Positions 21,546 through 63,622 of a stretch of DNA of 64,000 bases are shown here, in pieces. The stretch comes from Hypanus sabinus. Its lineage: Eukaryota. The notes beneath the pieces were generated by a model. It did not search any database. It saw nothing but the letters and a program-made list of their open reading frames with translations, and was not told where the DNA came from. Both the position numbers and the translations under genes were made by a program. The stretch spans positions 176,390,001 to 176,454,000 of the forward strand of contig NC_082707.1 of assembly GCF_030144855.1 (NCBI RefSeq), in the 5' to 3' direction. Positions within the stretch are counted from its first letter, which is position 1; every line of letters begins with the position of its first letter.

Positions 21546-22549
21546 TAAGAACTCTACAACATGTTCTAGATACTTATTGCTTATTTATTTATTATTATTG
21601 GTAATTTCACTCTTTTTCTGTATTAGCACAGTTTGTTATTTGCACATTGGTTGCCTATATTTGTTGAATGCGTTTTCATTGACTCTGTTGTGTTTCTTTG
21701 TATTTACTGCGAACACCTGCAGGAAAATGAATCTCAGGGTTGTGTGTGGTGACATATATGCACTTTGATAATAAATTTACTTTGAGCCTTTTGAAATGAA
21801 GAGCCATGCTCATTGATTAAGAAGCAATGTCTTTTCCTCTGCCATCTGATTTCTGAACAGTCATGAACAGAACCACATTATTCTTTTTAATTGTACTATT
21901 TGTGATTTTACGTCTATGTGTTGTACTGTTGGCACAACACAACACATTCCACACCATGTAAGGCAGTGAGATTGAACATGATTCTGATTCTGGGGGTAAA
22001 AAGCACTCTTGTTGTCTACCTTGGAGACCTCCTTTAACCAGGGAAAGGTGTAAAACTTCACACAGAATTCATGAATGCCCTAACATTAGTTTGAGCCTTT
22101 GCGAGCTTTATGTTGCCAAAGCAACGGAGTATTTTGCAGTCAGCTGTTGCAGGATTTCTGTGATAGGCCTCTGTGTCACACACACTCGCAGAGCAACCAT
22201 GGTGGGTTGGTATTTCCAGAAATAAAAGACATCATGCACCCTGTGTCTTCAAACAAAACTGAAATGAAGGTAGTTTCAAGGGAGTGCCTGTAAATTTCAT
22301 AGCTGAGTGTTCTGATCAGAGCAATGCAAAGAAACTCTGAACTAGCACTGCTTGTTGAAGATTTTATGCCCCGTTTATATAAGAACCCATTGTTTACAAC
22401 CAGGAGTGGCCTTGTACCATTTGAGGCAAGCGTATTGTGCAAACTTAAACTGGTTTCAGAAACAAAGCTAGTGCAATTTCTCATTTTATCTTCTCATCCA
22501 GTGACTGCACTGGTACAATTAAGAAGAAATCAGATCAGGAGTAAGTCAT

Positions 22550-22763
22550 TGATGCACCATCAATAACTCACACTGAGACGTAAGGCGAGATATCGGCTTT
22601 TATTGACTGGAAGAAGGAACCAGGAGTGAGTGTCCATCATACTATGTCCTGGAGACTGAGGCCGAGCGTCAGGCCTCAGATCGCCTTTATACAGGGGCCT
22701 GTGGGAGGAGCCACAGGAGCAGTCAGCAGGGGGCGTGTCCAGACAGGCACATAGTTCACCACA
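22550..22763 (-). repeat. 3' LTR of the Gypsy element (214 bp)
   Basis: Direct repeat of 26952-27165; preceded on the minus strand by the polypurine tract. Confidence 0.96.
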
Positions 22764-22777
22764 TTCACCCCCCCTTT
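22764..22777 (-). promoter_or_regulatory. Polypurine tract (PPT)
   Basis: Minus strand AAAGGGGGGGTGAA abuts the 3' LTR. Confidence 0.85.
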
Positions 22778-22808
22778 GTTTGAAAGAGTCCCCATGTGGC
22801 GAAGTTTC

Positions 22809-23960
22809 TTACAAGTCAAGTCTATCAGGTGGTCGAATCTGTCGCTGCGACCTACGTAGCACCGGCTGTGATCGCATGGATGCCGGCGACATTGGTGATT
22901 GCACAGGGGACGGAGGTTGCGCTTGTTCCTGCCCACTAGGCGCCGGTGATCCCTCACGCATGTGCGAGGCGCCTGGTATAAATGCGTACGAAACGCCCGG
23001 TATACAAGTGTCGTGAAGAGTCTGTGTTGGGCCTGGTGAGTACGGTGTCACCTCTGGTGCAGGGTTCATAGTTACCGGAGAGCCTTCAGGGTAGTGGTCT
23101 GCTGCACCTGCGGGTGCCAGGTCGCGGATGGAGACCGTGTCCTCCCGCCCATCAGGTAAGACCACGTAAGCATGCTGGGGGTTCGCATGTAGAAGGTGAA
23201 CCCTCTCTACCAGCGGGGAGTATTTATTGCTCCTCACATGTTTCCGGAGCAGCACTGGCCCCGGGGACGTCAGCCAAACTGGTAGGGTGGTCCCAGTGAC
23301 AGACTTCCTGGGAAAAGAGAATAGGCGTTCGTGAGGGGTGGCATTGGTGGACGTACATAACAGAGAGCGGATAGAGTGCAGTGCCTCAGGGAGGACCTCC
23401 TGCCATCGAGAGACCGGCAACCCTTTTGACTTAAGGGCTAAAAGTATGGCCTTCCACACTGTGGCATTCTCCCGCTCCACCTGGCCATTACCTCGGGGAT
23501 TATAACTCGTGGTCCGACTGGTAGCAATGCCCCTAGCTAGCAAGTACTGGCGCAGCTCCTCACTCATAAAGGAGGACCCTCTATCGCTGTGGATATAGCA
23601 GGGATACCCGAACAGAGTGAAGAGCTGGCGCAGGGCTTTTATGACGGACGTGGCAGTGGTGTCGGGGCAGGGGATGGCAAAGGGGAACCGTGAGTACTCG
23701 TCGATAACACTGAGAAAATAGACATTGTGGTCAGTGGAGGGAAGGGGGCCCTTAAAGTCAACACTCAGTCGTTCAAAAGGGCGGGTGGCCTTGACAAGTT
23801 GTGCCGTGTCAGGACGGTAGAAGTGCGGTTTGCACTCAGCGCAAATTTGGCAGTCCCTGGTCATCGTCCTGATGTCCTCCAGGGAGTACGGCAGGTTCCG
23901 AGCTTTCACAAAATGGTAAAATCGGGTGACCCCCGGATGGCAAAGTTGTGCATGAAGCAC
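22809..23960 (-). CDS. Gypsy integrase domain (open frame, separated from upstream pol by a frameshift)
   Basis: HHCC motif (LHAQLCHPG...CQIC), DDE motifs (SVDFKG, HSDRG, QVER), then a Pro/Ser-rich tail ending LRRSQRQIRPPDRLDL. No chromodomain. Confidence 0.92.
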   Translation of the reverse strand: MLHAQLCHPGVTRFYHFVKARNLPYSLEDIRTMTRDCQICAECKPHFYRPDTAQLVKATRPFERLSVDFKGPLPSTDHNVYFLSVIDEYSRFPFAIPCPDTTATSVIKALRQLFTLFGYPCYIHSDRGSSFMSEELRQYLLARGIATSRTTSYNPRGNGQVERENATVWKAILLALKSKGLPVSRWQEVLPEALHSIRSLLCTSTNATPHERLFSFPRKSVTGTTLPVWLTSPGPVLLRKHVRSNKYSPLVERVHLLHANPQHAYVVLPDGREDTVSIRDLAPAGAADHYPEGSPVTMNPAPEVTPYSPGPTQTLHDTCIPGVSYAFIPGASHMREGSPAPSGQEQAQPPSPVQSPMSPASMRSQPVLRRSQRQIRPPDRLDL

Positions 23961-26518
23961 AGCTGGTCGAGCTGTGTGCTAGCACATGTTCCCCGGGATA
24001 GGGCATCAGGGGGCTCATTGAGTCTGCCAGGCCGGTACAGGATATCATAGGTGTAGGTGGAGAGTTCTATTCTCCACCGCAAAATCTTATCATTTTTGAT
24101 TTTGCCCCGCTGTTGGTTGCTGAACAGGAACGCAACCGAGCGCTGGTCAGTCAGCAGGGTGAACCTTTTGCCAGCAAGATAGTGCCTCCAGTGCCTAACA
24201 GCCTCCACGATGGCCTGGGCTTCTTTCTCCACCGCGGAGTGCCGAATTTCGGAGCCTTGGAGGGTGCGAGAAAAGAATGCTACTGGTCTGCCTTCCTGAT
24301 TGAGGGTAGCAGCCAGAGCAAAATCGGAGGCGTCACACTCCACTTGGAAGGGAGCGGTCTCGTCCACCGCATGCATCGTAGCTTTGGCAATGTCCTCTTT
24401 AATGCAGCTGAAGGCCACGCGGGCCTCGGCAGAGAGGGGAAACGAGGTAGACTTGACCAGGGGGCGAGCCTTGTCTGCGTAATGGGGGACCCATTGGGCG
24501 TAATAGGAAAAAAAACCCAGGCACCGTCTGAGGGCCTTGAGAGTGGTGGGAAGAGGGAGTTCTAACAGGGGGCGCATACGTTCGGGATCAGGGCCAATAA
24601 CCCCGTTTTCCACGACATACCCAAGTATAGCAAGGCGGGTGGTTCCAAACACACACTTGTCCCTGTTATAAGTAAGGTTCAGAGCTGCGGCCACTTGGAG
24701 AAATCGTTGGAGGTTGGCGTCCTGATCTGGCCTGTCGTGACCACAGATGGTGATGTTATCCAGATAGGGAAATGTGGCCTTCAGTTGGTACTGGTCCACC
24801 ATCCGGTCCATTTCCCTCTGGAAGACAGAGACACCATTCGTGACACCGAAAGGGACGTGCAAGAAGTGATAGAGCCTGCTGCCTGCCTCGAAGGCGGTGT
24901 AGGGGCGGTCCTCTGGGCAGATGGGGTGCTGGTGATAAGCGGATTTCAGATCTATTGTCGAGTACACCATGTACTGAGCAATCTGGTTGACCATATCCGC
25001 GATGCGGGGTAGGGGGTACGCGTCAAGCTGCGTGAACCTATTGATGGTTTGACTATAGTCCACCACCATCCTATTTTTCTGCCCAGTCCGAACAACAACC
25101 ACCTGGGCCCTCCAAGGGCTTGTGCTTGGCTCAATGATCCCCTCCCTGAGCAGCCGCTGCACCTCCGACTGAATGAAGGCCCTGTCCCCCGCGCTGTACC
25201 TCCTGCTTTTAGTTGCCACAGGTTTACAGTCAGGGGTCAGGTTGGCGAACAGCGGTGGGGGAGGGACCTTGAGAGTGGAGAGGCTGCAAGTGGTGTCGGT
25301 AGCACAGCTGTCGGCATGGTTCTGGATGGGATGTGTGTGCCCGTGTGTGTGTGTGGTCAGTAGCGGGGTATGTGAAGAAGTCCCACAAAACTGAGGATTC
25401 CTGACAGTGAGCGGTGGGAGGGGCCCGTCATACACCATAGTCACACTTTCGAGATGGCTCTGGAAGTCCAGCCCCAATAGCACAGGGGCGCACAGATTAG
25501 GCATGACCAGTAGCTCAAAGTTCCGATATTCTGTGCCTTGCACCACCAAAGTCGTTACACAACCCGCCCGGATGTCTGTGGACTGCGACCCAGAAGCCAA
25601 ATGGAACCTCCGACTTACCGGCCGCGTTGCAAGTCCACAGCGTTGCACTGTGTCCGGGTGAATAAAACTCCCAGTGCTGCCCATGTCAAACAGGCATCTA
25701 GTCCGGTGCCCCTCCACCAGGATGTCCATCATGGACCTTGCAAGCTGGTGTGGGGCGCTTTGGTCGAGAGTTACAGTGGCCAGAGTTGAATCGCCGTCGG
25801 GGTACCCGGTAAGCATTGGAGGGTCGGGGGCGGGGCATGCTGACGTCGACAAAGATGGCCGCCCACATCCGGGGTACCCGGTCAGCATTCGAGGGTCGGG
25901 GGCGGGGCATGCTGACGTCGACAAAGATGGCCGCTCACATCCGGGGTACCCGGTCAGCATTCGAGGGTCGGGGGCGGGGCATGCTGACGTCGACAAAGAT
26001 GGCCGCTCACATCCGGGGTACCCGGTAAGCATCGGAGGGTCGGGGGCGGGGCGTGCTGACGCCGACAAAGATGGCCGCCCACATCCGGGCATGCAAGATG
26101 GCGGCCCCCACGTTTCACCCGCAGCACTGCACTCCGCTCGAGGTTGAGACTTACAGACCTTGGCGAAATGGCCCTGCTTTCCGCAGCTGGAGCAGGTCGC
26201 TTCTCGCGCTGGACAGCGTTGTCGAGAGTGTTTTTTATGGCCACAGAAAGAACAAAGCACAGGCTTCCGACGGGCTGCCGCTGTGGTCGGGTTCGGGGAG
26301 CTCGTGGAATCGCGACTGGCAGCGGCGTTGGCGAATTTGCTCCCGGGAGCCGGCAGTGGCAGGGTCTGAGGAGTCCACGGAACCAGCGGGGAATCGCGCG
26401 ACTGGACAGCGTCGGCGTAGTGCAGCGCAGCTTCCAGAGCGTTGGCCGTCTCCATCGCCGAGCTTAAGGTAAGGTTGGCATTTTCCAGCAGTCGCTGGCA
26501 CATGTACACAAAAGCGTC
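23960..26518 (-). pseudogene. Gypsy gag C-terminus (2 zinc knuckles), protease, reverse transcriptase and RNase H
   Basis: ORF 23906..26581 contains CSFCGHKKHSRQRC and CSSCGKQGHFAKVC knuckles, protease LFDMGS (DTG/DSG expected), RT motifs SPWRAQ, VDY, DLKSAYHQ, PFG and YLDN, and RNase H motifs CDAS, EKE and TDQ. It frameshifts near 23960. Confidence 0.93.
25798..26085 (-). repeat. In-frame 72-bp x4 tandem repeat (24 aa) between the gag knuckles and the protease
   Basis: Units start at 25798, 25870, 25942 and 26014; peptide GCERPSLSTSACPAPDPRMLTGYP. Confidence 0.95.
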
Positions 26519-26925
26519 ACAAAAGCGTCTCGCATCAGCAGCTCCGCATGTTGTTCTGCCGTGAGCGTCTTGCAGTCGCAAGCTCGGACGAGTGTCTGTA
26601 GTGCTCGGAGAAACTCAGCGCACGATTCACCAGGCCGCTGTTGCCGGGTAGCTAAACGATGTCTTGCGTAGACGGTGTTCACCGGCTGCAGGTACTGTCT
26701 TTTGAGGGCGTCCAGTGCCTCATCGTAGGTCGGCAGGTCCCGGATAATGGAGTAAACTTTGGGGGTGACCCTCGAGAGTAGAATTCTGTGCATAACGGCG
26801 GGTTCAGTTGCACGAACCTCCTCCAAGTACGATTGGAAGCATGCAAGCCAGTGTTCAAAAGCGAGAGCTGCGTCAGGGTCTTGAGGGTCCAAATCCAACC
26901 GGTCCGGACGCAAAACGGTTTCCGT
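26507..26925 (-). pseudogene. Gypsy gag, N-terminal part (ACG at the expected start; frameshift at ~26507-26529)
   Basis: The frame reads ACG GAA ACC GTT TTG CGT = (M)ETVLRPDRLDLDPQ...FEHWLACF...RHRLATRQQRPGES...LMRDAFV, then an 11-bp tandem duplication shifts the frame. Confidence 0.8.
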
Positions 26926-26934
26926 GTTTTAAAA

Positions 26935-26950
26935 CTTCCAGTCAATAAAA
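26935..26950 (-). promoter_or_regulatory. Non-tRNA primer-binding site complementary to the element's own LTR
   Basis: Minus strand TTTTATTGACTGGAAG starts 1 nt after the 5' LTR end and has no TGG start. It is the exact reverse complement of LTR positions 27000-27015 on the same strand. Confidence 0.8.
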
Positions 26951-26951
26951 T

Positions 26952-27165
26952 TGATGCACCATCAATAACTCACACTGAGACGTAAGGCGAGATATCGGCT
27001 TTTATTGACTGGAAGAAGGAACCAGGAGTGAGTGTCCATCATACTATGTCCTGGAGACTGAGGCCGAGCGTCAGGCCTCAGATCGCCTTTATACAGGGGC
27101 CTGTGGGAGGAGCCACAGGAGCATTCAGCAGGGGGCGTGTCCAGACGGGCACATAGTTCACCACA
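26952..27165 (-). repeat. 5' LTR of the Gypsy element (214 bp)
   Basis: Direct repeat of 22550-22763 with 2 substitutions. The minus strand has TATAAA (~27087-27092), an Inr-like TCAGTC about 30 nt downstream, and AATAAA (27001-27006). Confidence 0.96.
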
Positions 27166-27229
27166 GTCATCCATCCTTTGAGTCTTCTCCACCGTTCATC
27201 AAGCTGAAGCTGATAATGGCGTTTAATGA

Positions 27230-27675
27230 TGGTCAGACTACTTTCCTTCTGAAATCCATATAAAGGGATATTCTCTAACTGAGATTGTGTCCTCTGGCCT
27301 TCAACTCTGCCACTAATGACAAACTTCAACTCATTCAGAACGCTGCTGCTAGACTTTTTAGCTAAAACCAGGATAAGCAAGCATATCCCTCCCATCCTAG
27401 CTAATCCGTATCTTTTAGAATTAATTTCAAAGTTCTCTTCCTTGTTTTTAAAGCTCTCAGTAGTCTGGGACCGGAGTACACGACAGAATTGCTTTCATTT
27501 TATAATCCTGCTCAAGTTTGCAGGTCTTCGTCCACCACTCTCTCAAATTTAAACCATCCCCCTCAAAAGATAATTGGCAGGTCATCCTTTTTGAACTATG
27601 GTCCAAAGCTGTGGAATTCAGTAATATCTAAAACCAAAAGGGATGCAGACGCAGTTGACACTTTTTAACACCAGC
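27230..27675 (+). mobile_element. L2-type LINE 3' fragment (continues at 28776-28880)
   Basis: KLQLIQNAAARLLAKTRISKHIPPILA signature. Confidence 0.7.
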
Positions 27676-31419: not shown

Positions 31420-31635
31420 TGATGCACCATTAATAACTCACTCTGAGAAGTAAGGCGAGATATCGGCTTTTATTGACTGGAAGAAGGAACCAGAAGTGAG
31501 TGACCATCATACTATGACCTGGAGACTGAGGCCGAGCGTCAGGCCTCCAATCGCCTTTATACCGGGGTCTGTGGGAGGAGCCACAGGAGCAGTCAGCAGA
31601 GGGCGTGTCCAGACAGGCACACGTAGTTCACCACA
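31420..31635 (-). mobile_element. Solo LTR of the same Gypsy family
   Basis: About 94% identical by eye to the 214-bp LTRs, with a 2-bp insertion; TG...CA ends; TSD GTGTG (31415-31419 and 31636-31640) inside a (TG)n tract. Confidence 0.95.
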
Positions 31636-32887: not shown

Positions 32888-34516
32888 GTTTTTGTGAGGG
32901 AGGCGGGATTTGGGGTCGATGTGCCTGTTCAGTTTTTGTGAGGGAGGAGGGATTTGGGGTTGATGTGCCTGTTCAGTTTTTGTGAGGGAGGAGGGATTTG
33001 GGGTCAATGTGCCTGTTCAGTTTTTGTGAGGGAGGAGGGATTTGGGGTCGATGTGCCTGTTCAGTTTTTGTGAGGGAGGAGGGATTTGGGGTCGAGGTGC
33101 CTGTTCAGTTTTTGTGAGGGAGGAGGGATTTGGGGTCGAGGTGCCTGTTCAGTTTTTGTGAGGGAGGAGGGATTTGGGGGTCGAGGTGCCTGTTCAGTTT
33201 TTGTGAGGGAGGAGGGATTTGGGGTCAATGTGCCTGTTCAGTTTTTGTGAGGGAGGAGGGATTTGGGGTCGATGTGCCTGTTCAGTTTTTGTGAGGGAGG
33301 AGAGATTTGGGGTCGAGGTGCCTGTTCAGTTTTTGTGAGGGAGGAGGGATTTGGGGTCGAGGTGCCTGTTCAGTTTTTGTGAGGGAGGAGGGATTTGGGG
33401 TCGAGGTGTCTGTTCAGTTTTTGTGCTGGAGGAGGGATTTGGGGTCGAGGTGCCTGTTCAGTTTTTGTGAGGGAGGAGGGATTTGGGGTCGATGTGCCTG
33501 TTCAGTTTTTGTACTGGAGGAGGGATTTGGGGTCGAGGTGCCTGTTCAGTTTTTGTGCTGGAGGAGGGATTTGGGGATCGAGGTGCCTGTTCAGTTTTTG
33601 TGAGGGAGGAGGGATTTGGGGTCGAGGTGCCTGTTCAGTTTTTGTGAGGGAGGAGGGATATGGGGTCGAGGTGCCTGTTCAGTTTTTGTGAGGGAGGAGG
33701 GATTTGGGGTCGAGGTGCCTGTTCAGTTTTTGTGAGGGAGGAAGGATTTGGGGTCGAGGTGCCTGTTCAGTTTTTGTGAGGGAGGAGGGATTTGGGGTCG
33801 AGGTGCCTGTTCAGTTTTTGTGCTGGAGGAGGGATTTGGGGTCGATGTGCCTGTTCAGTTTTTGTACTGGAGGAGGGATTTGGGGTCGATGTGCCTGTTC
33901 AGTTTTTGTGAGGGAGGAGGGATTTGGGGTCGAGGTGCCTGTTCAGTTTTTGTGAGGGAGGAGGGATTTGGGGTCGAGGTGCCTGTTCAGTTTTTGTGAG
34001 GGAGGAGGGATTTGGGGTCGAGGTGCCTGTTCAGTTTTTGTGAGGGAGGAGGGATTTGGGGTCGAGGTGCCTGTTCAGTTTTTGTGAGGGAGGAGGGATT
34101 TGGGGTCGAGGTGCCTGTTCAGTTTTTGTGAGGGAGGAGGGATTTGGGGTCGAGGTGACTGTTCAGTTTTTGTGAGGGAGGAGGGATTTGGGGTCGAGGT
34201 GCCTGTTCAGTTTTTGTGAGGGAGGAGGGATTTGGGGTCGAGGTGTCTGTTCAGTTTTTGTGAGGGAGGAGGGAGTTGGGGTCGAGGTGACTGTTCAGTT
34301 TTTGTGAGGGAGGAGGGATTTGGGGTCGAGGTGACTGTTCAGTTTTTGTGCTGGAGGAGGGATTTGGGGTCGATGTGCCTGTTCAGTTTTTGTGAGGGAG
34401 GAGGGATTTGGGGTCGAGGTGACTGTTCAGTTTTTGTGAGGGAGGAGGGATTTGGGGTCGAGGTGACTGTTCAGTTTTTGTGAGGGAGGAGGGATTTGGG
34501 GTCGAGGTGCCTGTTC
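32888..34516 (+). repeat. 44-bp minisatellite, ~37 copies
   Basis: Unit GTGCCTGTTCAGTTTTTGTGAGGGAGGAGGGATTTGGGGTCGA(G/T), head-to-tail with no spacers. Confidence 0.97.
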
Positions 34517-57188: not shown

Positions 57189-58406
57189 AATAGACAATAG
57201 GTGCAGGAGTAAGCCCTTCAGCCCTTCTAGCCAGCACCACCATTCACTGTGATCATGGCTGATCATACACAATCAGTACCCCATTCCTGCCCTCTCCCCA
57301 TATCCCTTGACCCCGCTATCTATAAGAGCTCTATCTAACTCACTGTTGAATGCATCCAGAGACTTGGCCTCCACTGCCTTCTGGGACAGAGCATTCCACA
57401 TATCCACCACGCTCTGAGTGAAAAAGTTTTTCCGCATCTCAGTTCTAAATGGCCTACCCCTTATTCTTAAACTGTGGCCTCTAGTTCTGGACTCACCCAT
57501 CAGCGGGAACATGCTTCCTGCCTCCAGCATGTCCAATCACTTAATAATCTTATATATTTCAATCAGATCCCCTCTCATCCTTCTAAATTCCAGTGTATAC
57601 AAGCCCAGTCGCTCCAATCTTTCAACATATGACGGTCCCGCCATTCCGGGAATTAACCTTGTGAACCTACGCTGCACCCCATCAATAGCAAGAATGTCCT
57701 TCCTCAAATTTGGATACCAAAACTGCACACAATACTCCAAGTGGGGTCTCACCAGGGCACTGCAGAAGGACCTCTTTACTCCTATACTCAATTCGTCTTG
57801 TTATAAAGACCAGCATGCCATTAGCTTTCTTCACTGCCTGCTGTACCTGCATGCTTGCTTTCATTGACTGATGTACAAGAACACCTAGATCTTGTTGTAC
57901 TTCCCCTTTTCCTAACTTGACTCCATTTAGATAGTAATCTGCCTTCCTGTTCTTGCCACCAATGTGGATAACCTCACATTTATCTACATTAAACTACATC
58001 TGCCATACATTTGCCCACTCACCCAACCTGTCCAAGTCACCCTGCATTCTCATAACATCTTCCTGACATTTCACACTGCCACCCAGCTTTGAGTCATCAG
58101 CAAATTTGCTAATGTTACTTTTAATCCCTTCATCTAAATCATTAATGTATATTGTAAACAGCTGCGGTCCCAGCACCGAACCTTGCGGTACCCCACTGGT
58201 CACAGCCTGCCATTCCGAAAGGGACCTGTTAATCGCTACTCTTTGTTTCCTGTCAGCCAGCCAATTTTCAATCCATGTCAGTACTCTGCCACAATACCAT
58301 GTGCCCTAATTTTGCCCACTAATCTCCTATGTGGGACTTTATCAAAAGCTTTCTGGAAGTCCAGGTACACTATATCCACTGGCTCTCCCTTGTCCATTTT
58401 CATAGT
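57189..58406 (-). mobile_element. CR1 LINE 3' fragment (CR1-B) inserted into the RT region of CR1-A
   Basis: Has its own tail (CTATTGT)n at ~57189 and its own SGVPQGSVLGP...KFADDSKL. CR1-A rejoins as TACAATGACA|CCCAGGTCTC. Confidence 0.88.
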
Positions 58407-58407
58407 C

Positions 58408-59785
58408 ACCCAGGTCTCGTTGCACCTCCCCTTTTCCTAATCGGTCACTGTTCAGATAATAATCTGTTTTCCTGTACTTGTAATCGAAGTGGATAACCTC
58501 ACATTTATCCACATTAAATTGCATCTGCCATGAATTTGCCCACTCACCTAACCTATCCAAGTCACCCTGCATCCTCTTAGCATTCGCCTCACAGCTAACA
58601 CCACCACCCAGCTTCGTGTCATCCGCAAACTTGGAGATGCTGCATTTAATTTCCTCATCTAAATCATTAATATATATTGTAAACAACTGGGGTCCCAACA
58701 CTGAGCCTTGCGGTACCCCACTAGTCACTGCCTGCCATTCTGAAAAGGTCCCGTTTACTCCAACTCTTTGCTTCCTGTCTGCCAACCAATCCTCTATCCA
58801 CATCAATACCATACCCCAAATACCGTGTGCTTTAAGTTTGCATACTAATCTCCTGTGTGGGACCTTGTCAAAAGCCTTTTGAAAATCTAAATATACCACA
58901 TCAACTGGCTCTCCCCTATCCACTCTACTAGTTACATCTTCAAAAAATTCTATAAGATTCGTCAGACATGGTTTTCCTTTCACAAATCCATGCTGACTTT
59001 GTCCGATGATTTCACCTCTTTCTAAATGTGCTGTTATCACATCTTTGATAACCAACTCTAGCATTTTCCCCACCACCGATGTCAGACTAACCAGTCTATA
59101 GTTCCCCGGTTTCTCTCTCCCTCCTTTTTTAAAAAGTGGGGTTACATTAGCCACCCTCCAATCCTCAGGAACTAATCCAGAATCTAAGGAGTTTTGAAAA
59201 ATTATCACTAACGCATCCACTATTTCTTGGGCTACTTCCTTCAGCACTCTGGGATGCAGACCATCTGGCCCTGGGGATTTATCTGCCTTTAATCCCTTCA
59301 ATTTACCTAACACCACTTCCCTACTAACATGTATTTCCCTCAGTTCCTCCATCTCACTAGACCCTCGGTCCCTTACTATTTCCGGAAGATTATTTCTGTC
59401 CTCCTCAGCGAAGACAGAACCAAAGTAGTTATTCAATTGGTCTGCCATGTCTTTGTTCACTATGATCAATTCACCTGTTTCTGACTGTAAAGGATCTACG
59501 TTTGTCTTGACCAATCTTTTTCTTTTCACATATCTATAAAAGCTTTTACAGTCAGTTTTTATGTTCCCTGCCAGCTTTCTCTCATAATCTTTTTTCCCTT
59601 TCCTAATTAAGCCCTTTGCCCTCCTCTGCTGGTCTCTGAATTTCTCCCAGTCCTCAGGTGTGCCACTTTCTTTTGCTAATTTATATGTTTCTTCTTTGGA
59701 CTTGATATTCTTTGGAATTTCCCTTGTCAGCCACAGGTGAACTACCTTCCCTAGTTTATTCTTTTGCCAAACTGGGATGAACAAT
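58408..59785 (-). CDS. CR1 ORF2p reverse transcriptase domain (open fragment)
   Basis: KSPGPDGLHPRVLKE, PGNYRLVSLTS, YLDFQKAFDKV, GVPQGSVLGP and SKFADDTKL. Confidence 0.93.
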
Positions 59786-60234
59786 ATCCCATATCGATTC
59801 CACATCCTCCAGGCTAATGTCCTTCCTTTCTATTGCGTTAATCTCCTCTCTAACCAGCAATGCTACCCCACCTCCTTTTCTTTCCTGTCTATCCCTCCTG
59901 AATATTGAATATCCCTGGATGTTGAGCTCCCATCCTTGGTCACCCTAGAGCCATGTCTCTGTGATCCCAACTATATCATATTCATTAATAACTATCTGCA
60001 CATTCACTTCATCCACCTTGTTACGAATGCTCCTCGCATTGACATACAAAGCCTTCAGGCTTGTTTTTACAACACTCTTAGCCCTGATACAATTATGTTG
60101 AAAAGTGGCCCTTTTTGCTTTTTGCCCTGGATTTGCCTGCCTGCCACTTTTACTTTTCACCTTACTACTTTTTGCTTCTACCCTCATTTTACACCCCTCT
60201 GTCTCTCTGCACGTGTTCCCATCCCCCTGACACA

Positions 60235-60795
60235 TTAGTTTAAAGCCTCCTGAACAGCAGTAGCAAATGTTCCCCCTAGGACATTGGTTACAGTCCAGCC
60301 CAAGTGCAGACCGTCCTGTTTATACCAGTCCCACCTCTCCCAGAACTGGTTCCAATGCCCCAGAAATTTGAATCCCTCCCCCTTGCACCATTTTTCAAGC
60401 CACGTATTCATCTGAAATATCCTCCTATTTCTACTCTGACTAGCACGTGGCACTGGTAGTAATCCAGAGATTATTACCTTTGTGGTCCTACTTTTTAGTT
60501 TATCTCCTAACTCCCTAAATTCACCTTGTAGAATCTCATCCCGTTTTTTACCTATATCGTTGGTACCTATGTGCACCACGACCACTGGCTGTTCACCCTC
60601 CCATTCCAGAATGGCCTGCAGCCGCTCAGAGACATCCTTGACCCTTGCACCAGGGAGGCAACATACCATCCTGGAGTCTCGTTTGCGGCCGCAGAAACGC
60701 CTATCTATTCCCTTTACAATCGAATCCCCTATGACTATAGCTCTCCCACTCCTTTTCCTTCCCTCCTGTGCCGCAGAGCCACCCATGGTGCAATG
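60235..60795 (-). CDS. CR1 ORF1p, SGNH esterase domain (5'-truncated)
   Basis: IVIGDSIV, PGARVKDV, HIGTNDIG and DGLHL are SGNH hydrolase blocks. Confidence 0.88.
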   Translation of the reverse strand, partial: HCTMGGSAAQEGRKRSGRAIVIGDSIVKGIDRRFCGRKRDSRMVCCLPGARVKDVSERLQAILEWEGEQPVVVVHIGTNDIGKKRDEILQGEFRELGDKLKSRTTKVIISGLLPVPRASQSRNRRIFQMNTWLEKWCKGEGFKFLGHWNQFWERWDWYKQDGLHLGWTVTNVLGGTFATAVQEALN

Positions 60796-63622
60796 AACTA
60801 TAATTTGTGATAACCTCACCTTTCATTTTCATGTCATCTGCAAACTTGCTGATGAAGCCTAGTGCATTTGCATCCAAATCATGGATATAAATACTGAATA
60901 ACAAGGGTCCTAGCACTGACTCCTGTGGCCTCCGTTCTGAGAAATGACTGCCAACCACTGACCTCTGTCTCCTATCTCTGAGCTAATTTTGAATCCACCT
61001 AACTGGCTCCCCTGGATTCCACAGGACCCAACCTTCCAGACCGGCCTATCATCTGGGACCTTGTCAAAGGCCTTACTGAAGTTCAAATAGACAATATCCA
61101 GTGCCCCACCCTCTACCTTTTTGGCAACTTTAGAAAAAAACTAAAAGGTTAGTCAAGCTCAAATTCCCACACACAAGGCCACGCTGGCTCCTCCTAATCA
61201 ATGTCTGCCTATCTAAATGCTGGATGCCCTCCCTCAGGATCCCCTCCAGTAAATTCCCTCTACTGATATCAAGCAGATTGGTCTGTAGTTTTCTGGTTTG
61301 TCCTTGCAACCCTTTTAAAGAATGGAACATCATCAGCTATCTTTCTGTCATTTGGAATTTCACCAGTGGTTAACAATTATTGGATGAAAGAGGAGGCTTA
61401 GAGGCCTAATCCCATTTCTAATTCATATGCACATGGGATTTAATCTCAGATCCAACACACACATTCACAATTTCACCACTTTATATTAGGGAACATGCTT
61501 TCCTTTATTGCCAAACAACTGAGATCAGTGTGGTGATATGTTCTGGACTGAAATTCAGGGATGTTATTGAGCAGTCAGCTCAGTGGTATTTTGAAGCTTT
61601 TTATACTTTTCTGTGGTTGTTGGGTAAGCAGGATTTATCAGGAAGTGAGAAGTAGACATCGCTTAACTTGTAGCATCTATATTCATTAAAGTACTTGCTT
61701 CAAAGGGTGAGATGTAGCTTTTGCGATCCCCATGGAGTGTTTCACTGAAAAGAAACTACGTCATTGGGGTTTAACTTTCTTTCCACAGATGTTGCTGGAC
61801 ACTTCATGATATATTAACTTGTGTCTTTTTCCTGGTTAACTCCTGGAGTTTAAAGTACTATTTACCCTGTCAGCTTTGGTCTGCACCCTATCACAGCTAT
61901 CCCTTCTTTTCTCTCCCTGCCCCCAACCCTTCCACTCTCTGCAACTTAAAAAGTTCAAAGTTCAAATAAATTTTTCTATCGAAGAATGAATATTTCACCA
62001 TATGCTACTTTGAGATTCATTTTCTTGCAGGCATTCACAGTAGAACAGAGAAATAAATTAAAGCTGTTAAAATGTACTTGTTTTTTCACTTTTCCAGACT
62101 AGTTGAAGGGTTCTTGACCTGAAACATTAACACATTTTCTCTTTGCATGCACATTGAATTTTTCGTCATATTTATGGTTTGGATTTCCAGCATCTCCAGT
62201 TTTATTACAAACCCTTTCAATCAACCTGTGCCTTCCAACTTGACGATTCTACATGGCAATGAGTCACAGATTCTTTCCCCTATTAGGTAGTAAGTTTTTT
62301 CATGAAATTCTTAAGAGAATCCATTTGTGACTATCACCTACTTTTGACTCCTTTGAGTTTCTCCATCTCCTCATCTTCCTTCGTCAAGCCTAATTCACAA
62401 CGTTAAATTCCTCCCAAGAAGCACCCCACTAATCACTACATTTTAGCAACCCTTTGATCACTTTGCTCTACAATGGACCTTGTGTTTTTTAAAATGTTTT
62501 AATTGTGATCTTTCCTGTACAAATTGTGTGTAATTTATGTTTTTTTGGTGAATGCTGTTTATCTGATGCTCTGTGCCTGTGATGTTGCTGTGATGTTTTT
62601 CATTACATCTGTGCACAAGTGTACTTGTGCATATGACGATAAACTGGACTTTGTCTCTCCCGCTGGGTTCTGATAAATGTATTTAATCATTTTAGTTATG
62701 GTGCTTGTAAATCTCTTTTATACCTTTGCCAATAGCTCCAGATTATTGTCAGAACATGGATACCATAACTTTACACAGTGTTCCAAATACGGTATAAACA
62801 AAATTCAATTTATTCATTTATTATTGATCCCTACAGTTTATTTGAAAGATTTATGGATTTCTGGGTTTTTTTTTGGTTGATCACTGGGGAAAGAACAGGA
62901 AGCAGCTACAAACCCAAATCACTATTTTCCACCCAAAATTTCTTTCTCTGCAATGGTCAGAATGAAAGAGAAAATGTCTTTGAGATCTGGAAAAGGAAAT
63001 TTCATTAACTCCCAATTCAGGAACGTTTCCCTGGTAACGCACAAGACTGCAGATGCTGGAATCCGAGCAACAAGCAATTTGCTAGAGGAACGCCTGTGGA
63101 GGAAAAGAAATTATCGATATTGTTGGTCAAAATTCTGCAAAAGGTTCCCGGATTTTGCTTGTGCCAAACCAATTTTACTTTATATAAATGACTGATTTCT
63201 TTTCCCATGCTGGACTAAGCATAAATAAGTTAAAAATTCCATGAAGAATATTTAGTCTGATTTTGATTTTAAAATCCAAAATATTAAGGTATTTAGAATT
63301 GTTATGTTTGCTACATGCAGTTTCAGGGTCTGGGCAAGAAAAAATGTCAACACATGAGTTATTGCTCCTAATTCCTGATACTTTGCTTTTGTTGTTAGAG
63401 CGAGTTGCCAGTCAGAGGAAAACCCACCTAGAAAATTGAACAACTCTGGGTAATGTACATCCAAATTGTCAGCTGTCAGACTCCAGTGGGCTAGGCTAGG
63501 TGAAGATAATTTAGAGAATGAGGAAAGAATAAGGCTGTAGATGAGGAAAAGCAGCATATGCAGTAACGTGGTGAGATATATTCATCCCCAATTGATTCAT
63601 TTTACTCTTGTTCTCTCTGTAG

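Follow-up and report, generated by a model that had tools for sequence, protein, structure and literature searches.

Probable self-priming in an animal lineage of Gypsy elements without a chromodomain, with the LTR poly(A) signal as candidate primer end

Introduction

In the literature found, self-priming among Gypsy elements is tied to the Tf1/sushi chromoviruses. In Tf1/Tf2, Tj1 and the Tf1/sushi elements, the site behind the 5' LTR is complementary to the element's own LTR and no tRNA is used; in Tf1 itself, RNase H cuts between bases 11 and 12 of an RNA folded into three duplexes, and the first 11 bases then prime (PMC7175516, PMC10085805, PMC4600332, PMC5341516). Self-priming can be predicted from a complement of at least 10 nt starting 0 to 5 nt past the LTR, and is also predicted for the TAR (Houba/Osr-1) lineage of Ty1/copia and for the plant Tcn1 clade (PMC6317226).

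Here we describe a Gypsy element found in a stretch of 64,000 nucleotides of the Hypanus sabinus genome (contig NC_082707.1, positions 176,390,001 to 176,454,000, below called the window). Like the Tf1/sushi elements, it carries behind its 5' LTR a complement of that LTR, and as in Tf1 the predicted cut lies directly 3' of the paired segment. Unlike them, it has no chromodomain, the RT of its lineage is mostly of the YxDN form and forms a separate clade in the best tree, and its paired segment, 10-18 nt long in the lineage, is a poly(A) hexamer near the LTR end. The complement falls within the limits used for TAR and Tcn1, and it covaries; TAR however belongs to another superfamily and Tcn1 to the chromoviruses, both are from plants, and the available text of PMC6317226 reports no link with a poly(A) signal.

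Results

Anatomy of the element

The element is a Ty3/Gypsy retrotransposon of the minus strand, running from 27165 to 22550. It has TG..CA LTRs that differ at 2 positions in 214 nt, a target-site duplication (TSD), a polypurine tract, and the domain order gag, protease, RT, RNase H, integrase. The top PDB match of its RT is Ty3 RT (E 6e-48). The reading frame of this copy is disrupted at at least two places, near 26460-26610 in gag-pol and near 23906-23978. The features are, all on the minus strand:

27166..27170, left TSD, ATGAC (5 bp)
26952..27165, 5' LTR, 214 nt, TG..CA, LTR nt 1 being 27165
27086..27093, TATA-like box TATAAAGG (27093), LTR nt 73, not conserved in related families
27056..27061, initiator-like TCAGTC, from which a start at LTR nt 107 (A at 27059) is predicted
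27000..27015, LTR nt 151-166, candidate self-primer with the AATAAA hexamer (27006-27001)
Between 27000 and 26999, plus or minus 1, predicted cut
26958..26999, stem of the predicted fold, adjoining the predicted cut on its 3' side, GCC (26999-26997) paired with GGT (26960-26958)
26950..26966, 7-bp hairpin across the LTR end, alternative fold
26935..26950, putative primer-binding site 1 nt past the LTR, complementary to LTR nt 151-166 over 16 nt
26464..26928, 5' part of gag, weak PNMA and Retrotrans_gag matches
25798..26089, 72-bp tandem repeat, 4.1 copies, in the gag/protease interval
23906..26614, frame of protease, RT (YLDN at 24766-24755) and RNase H
22809..23978, integrase frame, with neither a chromodomain nor a Tf2-type SH3 match
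22768..22781, polypurine tract, 4 nt ahead of the 3' LTR
22550..22763, 3' LTR
22545..22549, right TSD, ATGAC (5 bp)
31420..31635, solo LTR of the same family, 216 nt, sitting in a CA repeat

TCAGTC follows the form of the initiator motif, the Drosophila version of which is quoted elsewhere. That quotation is in PMC3601003.

The 72-bp tandem repeat is in frame, and open frames of other copies measure 1303, 1327 and 1351 aa, steps of 24 codons that suggest variation in its copy number. Elsewhere in the window lie a 44-bp tandem array of 37 copies with a strong G/T skew (32888-34516) and a minus-strand RT frame with a GDSL-lipase-like frame upstream (58342-60822), which we take to be a LINE with an esterase-type ORF1.

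A site complementary to the LTR

The original prediction had pointed to a perfect self-complementarity of 16 nt in place of a tRNA site, and this pairing is exact: TTTTATTGACTGGAAG (26950-26935) is the complement of CTTCCAGTCAATAAAA (27015-27000), with a loop of 49 nt, a single spacer base (26951) separating the site from the 5' LTR. Dinucleotide shuffling of the region, repeated 300 times, gave best complements of 6.4 nt on average and of 10 nt at most. The paired segment does lie 45-60 nt behind the TATA/initiator start, as had been noted, that start itself being only predicted. The 7-bp hairpin described at 26950-26966 exists, but a competing fold of the same bases has the lowest energy. 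A stem at its place occurs in 8 of 18 related families, not above chance (5.3 expected on average, and 100 of 1000 shuffles reaching that count), and the hairpin was dropped as a conserved element of the lineage.

The best tRNA match to the site was 6 nt in a comparison of 22 sequences of 8 anticodon types that missed the two positive controls. The genome does not contain the 16-mer directly followed by CCA, but as tRNAs gain CCA post-transcriptionally this test is weak. Rfam returned nothing at E<=1 for 26800-27300. Splicing inside the LTR was considered, since a CAG comes after a pyrimidine run, and ruled out: the complement spans the CAG, and the sole donor-like GT would leave an intron of about 35 nt.

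Copies in the host genome

A DNA search of the host genome gave 1571 candidate loci of the family, and the exact pattern of LTR end plus site occurs 2519 times. We compared the 30 copies closest to the query and 30 further ones chosen by their Gag protein. As predicted for a site of non-tRNA type, none of the 59 readable junctions among these 60 loci begins with TGG; other Gypsy lineages of the same genome, here called Gmr1-order and Mag-like, have TGG sites in 15 of 18 LTR pairs. The 16/16 site is kept in 27 of the 30 closest copies; of the remaining three, two show a single change and one went unparsed. In a second subfamily, the LTR is one C shorter and position 13 of the site reads A instead of G, bringing the pairing back to 14 nt. 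LTR base -13 and site base 13 thus covary, being C/G in 30, T/A in 19 and mixed in 7 of the 56 loci parsed among the 60. This is one evolutionary event, the copies not being independent.

Protein searches of the host genome for further families of the lineage returned only the family of the element and its subfamilies. Three copies spaced by about 4255 bp (G000:C1:64884444-64895160) are probably a tandem array with common LTRs.

Pairing covaries across related families

Relatives by RT were found in rays, a catshark, cnidarians, a sea slug, flukes, tapeworms, nematodes and a spider; none was found in the viral contigs searched. Among 89 foreign loci, the gag start was located in 44 and sufficient upstream DNA in 40, which together with the window makes 41 loci. 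A self-complement of at least 10 nt is present in 34 of these 41, and in 22 of 25 families, against 10 of 1025 shuffles (about 1%) and 1 of 38 internal controls. The complements are 10-18 nt long and their letters differ between families. The duplex is absent in three families and its inner bases are missing in 4 of the 22, likely through old damage in both cases. One relative, L105, has a typical T-rich site whose LTR arm is now unmatched (best 7 nt), which is either damage or an exception. Loci L141-L149 are animal Gypsy elements in contigs filed as bacterial genome bins, and are probably host contamination.

Positions were counted in the 18 families with an intact inner end, the 4 of 22 lacking the inner bases being excluded. 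In all 18, the site begins 1 nt after the CA of the LTR. The LTR arm ends in AAA, mostly followed by RCC (..AAA|RCC), and this end is AATAAA or ATTAAA in 13 families, the other five having no canonical hexamer. A stem right after the AAA is found in 17 (null mean 9.0, 0 of 2000 as high); in the exception, L142, both of its arms are altered. G stands at -10 in 17 families and A or T at -11 (A in 11), which look like a start motif and would fit a cap-near primer. TATAWA occurs within 200 nt upstream in only 5 of the 18, at -75 to -175, its distance not fixed. TGG-start sites are absent among the relatives listed.

The covariation of site and LTR that the original prediction implied is present among these relatives: pairing is family-specific, and a single compensatory change distinguishes L032 from L037 and L041. 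At positions 4-9, the pairing score is 1.00 within families versus 0.55 across them, and at positions 12-16 it is 0.74 versus 0.37 (0 of 5000 permutations). At positions 17-21, 0.23 versus 0.26 is background. The duplex is usually 13 nt long and fades by 16.

The helices of the 'pretzel' fold were also looked for. The stem after the cut is conserved, and the stem adjacent to the site is not above chance. On inspection by eye, the bases 3' of the site pair upstream of the core in the lineage, whereas those of the pretzel, as published, pair with the LTR downstream of the primer. Loops also differ, with 21-61 nt in the lineage and 259-308 nt in chromodomain elements of the same genome. These chromodomain Gypsy elements have a self-complement of 10-11 nt in 4 of 11 LTR pairs (L227, L229, L230, L236), so that two self-priming geometries seem to stand side by side in one host.

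Placement of the lineage

As predicted, the element has no chromodomain: its integrase frame gave no Chromo or PF24626 match at E<=10, and both are present in most chromovirus controls. In an RT-RNase H tree of 49 rows, 28 rows of the lineage stand on their own long branch (100/100) and 13 chromovirus rows stand apart (100/97). A tree constrained to group the lineage with 9 vertebrate chromovirus rows could not be rejected (AU p=0.13); long branches meet in the analysis, and the named references Tf1, sushi-ichi and Ty3 are absent from it. Five rows with short segments were left out (L083, L090, L095, L231, L160). RT-RNase H of the lineage is 26-31% identical to that of same-genome elements that we take to be Mag-like, which are on a separate branch of a tree without a named Mag reference.

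Compared with CsRn1 by its LTR-end motifs alone, as listed in Table 3 of PMC3601003 and without a reference sequence, the element matches the 5' motif TGTGGYG and not the 3' motif MSYYAMA. The Saci2/lennie clade of flatworms shares with it a single Gag-Pol frame, a similar size and variable primer sites, but has a 4-bp TSD, against 5 bp here, and assigned tRNA primers (PMC12471100). Identity with this clade was rejected on the TSD, and the cluster of the tapeworm homologue VZI48276.1 is absent from the proteins of Table S1 of that article.

The RT motif YLDN (24766-24755) aligns with YLDD of Ty3. Among 120 homologues, 80 have DN and 36 have DD. Residue D211 of Ty1 RT is said to be the second aspartate of YxDD. 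The Ty1 mutant D211N, in which one of the three active-site aspartates is likewise replaced by Asn, has lost transposition, and RNase H mutations rescue it partly (PMC2148107). Unlike in that mutant, the Asn is natural here, being found in two thirds of these homologues and in a family of thousands of copies.

Aberrant insertions map the end of strong-stop DNA

At 278 of the 2519 exact junctions (11%), the sequence runs on past the 16 nt as inverted LTR, a continuation to be expected in some insertions if plus-strand DNA copied a self-primer. We read 59 of these 278 fossils (L240-L298, genome G000), parsed by BLAST; L250 and L255 have a junction in common and are perhaps not independent. Among 39 with long flanks, the inverted arm reaches back to LTR nt 1 in 25, continues beyond the LTR start by 10-519 nt of the 3' internal region in 6, ends after 19-27 nt in 7 and ends inside in one. 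A primer made of a 5' piece would give the six longest arms only with an extra template switch. The 5-bp TSD is present in 10 of the 12 fossils with both ends visible, so the insertions were made by integrase and do not come from faulty assembly. L247, L250, L255 and L269 are examples of mini-elements among them, 240-400 nt long, which carry two integrase ends as well as a TSD.

A long primer would account for the inverted arms, but so would snap-back or re-annealing at the 16-nt repeat, so that the arms alone do not tell where the primer comes from. In 36 fossils with a partial left LTR, the junction lies in nt 151-167 in 16 (p about 1e-5 under a uniform spread over nt 104-214), in 168-214 in 11, in 105-131 in 7 and further upstream in 2. 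Nine insertions start with antisense U5, which on its sequence would be a minus strong-stop copy that never jumped. Rereading their sequences placed the template exit at nt 167/166 in L255, L260, L269, L274 and L281, at 164 in L275 and at 158-167, ambiguously, in L295; the aligner value of 154 for L260 and L295 stems from a subsequent sense piece. The two others end at 177 (L250, whose junction may derive from that of L255 by a deletion) and at 189 (L253). Six of the nine strong-stop-like inserts therefore end at nt 164-167, the predicted cut, and none of the nine ends near nt 107. Such ends point to an RNA template whose 5' end lies directly behind the paired segment. Transcription starting at nt 167 would produce this stop as well.

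Discussion

The original proposal of self-priming in a non-chromovirus Gypsy lineage is well supported by the covariation, the lack of TGG sites and of a chromodomain, the tree, and the strong-stop ends at the predicted cut. Judged on these, the elements very probably prime themselves in one form or another. For the primer we favour, as the likely form, the copy of the segment in the 5' LTR. The segment ending in the poly(A) hexamer would fold onto the site behind the LTR, and the RNA would be cut directly 3' of the helix, at LTR nt 166/167 plus or minus 1, at the AAA|GCC step to the short conserved stem. By analogy with Tf1, the cutting enzyme would be the RNase H of the RT. The upstream RNA piece would then serve as primer, and RT would copy the remaining 48 nt and stop at nt 167, after which the DNA would jump to the 3' R, which may extend some 20 nt beyond the hexamer. 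Such a primer would exceed 11 nt, with a minimum of 13 and a length of about 60 should transcription start at nt 107 as the TATA/initiator motifs predict. Within this form, the start at nt 107 is a tentative choice, and one just upstream of the duplex is possible, with a somewhat smaller probability.

During plus-strand synthesis, about 13-16 nt of the primer may be copied until RNase H removes it, which would renew the complementarity of site and LTR. This view comes from the length of the duplex, usually 13 nt and fading by 16, set against the spacing of about 13 bp between the two active sites of Ty3 RT; in Ty3, the copied tRNA is reportedly not the transferred strand (PMC5371799). A primer longer than the duplex, as such renewal entails, weakens a strict 11-nt model. 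It is also plausible that the duplex has a second use in hiding the 5' poly(A) signal.

The main alternative places the start at about nt 167, so that only the LTR copy at the 3' end carries the hexamer segment; this copy would pair with the site and circularise the RNA, giving the same cut junction, and the second RNA of the particle would provide R. The stop at nt 167 then needs no 5' cut, arms covering all of U3 (25/39) or passing it (6/39) come from direct copying, and the problem of a 5' poly(A) signal disappears. However, the 25 arms ending at LTR nt 1, with TSDs where testable, better fit a polypurine-primed DNA template, no TATA lies about 30 nt upstream of nt 167, AAA|G makes a poor initiator, and the cut would take R off that RNA. 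We regard this form as unlikely. Less probable still is a strict Tf1-type start at LTR nt 156, the purine 10-11 nt ahead of the cut, with the first 11 nt as primer and TATA and initiator irrelevant, although the purines at -10 and -11, the shortest duplexes (10-11 nt), four fossil junctions at nt 153-156 and the example of Tf1 itself (PMC7175516) speak for it. Family-specific pairing at -12 to -16 and the compensation at -13 require a primer that reaches upstream of -11, and they led us to downgrade the AG 11 nt before the cut as start site. The 7 of 36 partial-LTR junctions at nt 105-131, with only 2 beyond, hint at longer RNAs, DNA templates being possible there too. The earlier suggestion that an internal cut or the R copy at the 3' end supplies the primer starts from a TATA/initiator prediction that is not conserved (TATAWA in 5/18 families). 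A strict cap-proximal primer of 11 nt is disfavoured, pairing covarying to about 16 nt.

The two remaining explanations dispense with self-priming. The duplex might only mask the poly(A) signal of the 5' LTR while another RNA primes, as the hexamer at the 3' end of the paired segment in 13/18 families and a pairing that is possible at the 5' LTR alone would allow; we hold this to be very improbable. It requires neither the 1-nt spacer, fixed in 18/18 families, nor DNA ends at nt 167, five of the families have no canonical hexamer, and no other primer site is visible. Instead, the primer might be a host small RNA, for instance a piece of tRNA, and the LTR match a by-product. Half-tRNA priming is reported in Copia lineages (PMC6317226), and our tRNA comparison was confined to 8 anticodon types and 22 sequences. 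A conserved host RNA nevertheless cannot follow a site that shifts with the LTR from family to family, and the tRNA match stopped at 6 nt, with the weak test of the 16-mer plus CCA negative as well; this explanation has the smallest probability of all. Neither masking alone nor a host primer explains jointly the spacer, the covariation and the DNA ends.

In its full extent, our proposal has an even chance of being right: a clade of non-chromovirus Gypsy elements, spread across animals and with a mostly YxDN RT, would have evolved self-priming independently, with the poly(A) signal as the 3' end of a primer released by an internal cut, or supplied by the copy at the RNA 3' end, rather than the first 11 bases; one helix would both hide the poly(A) signal and start synthesis, and aberrant insertions would map the cut. 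In the open literature (including the accessible text of PMC6934838, PMC3286476 and PMC13524379; subscription journals and Repbase Reports were outside the scope), we found no report of self-priming in such a clade; as the original prediction suggested, self-primed fish elements of this kind may already be described in repeat databases. The use of aberrant inverted-LTR insertions as a record of intermediates is new here. They give a readout of strong-stop ends from DNA only, usable for any high-copy self-priming family, and their frequency, 11% of exact junctions, indicates that the duplex is retained despite a cost. The natural occurrence of a YxDN RT in so successful a family is relevant to the role of the second aspartate. 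If true, a second, animal-wide lineage would mean that tRNA-free priming arose repeatedly; it would account for elements annotated as having no PBS, and such elements may escape silencing by tRNA 3' fragments.
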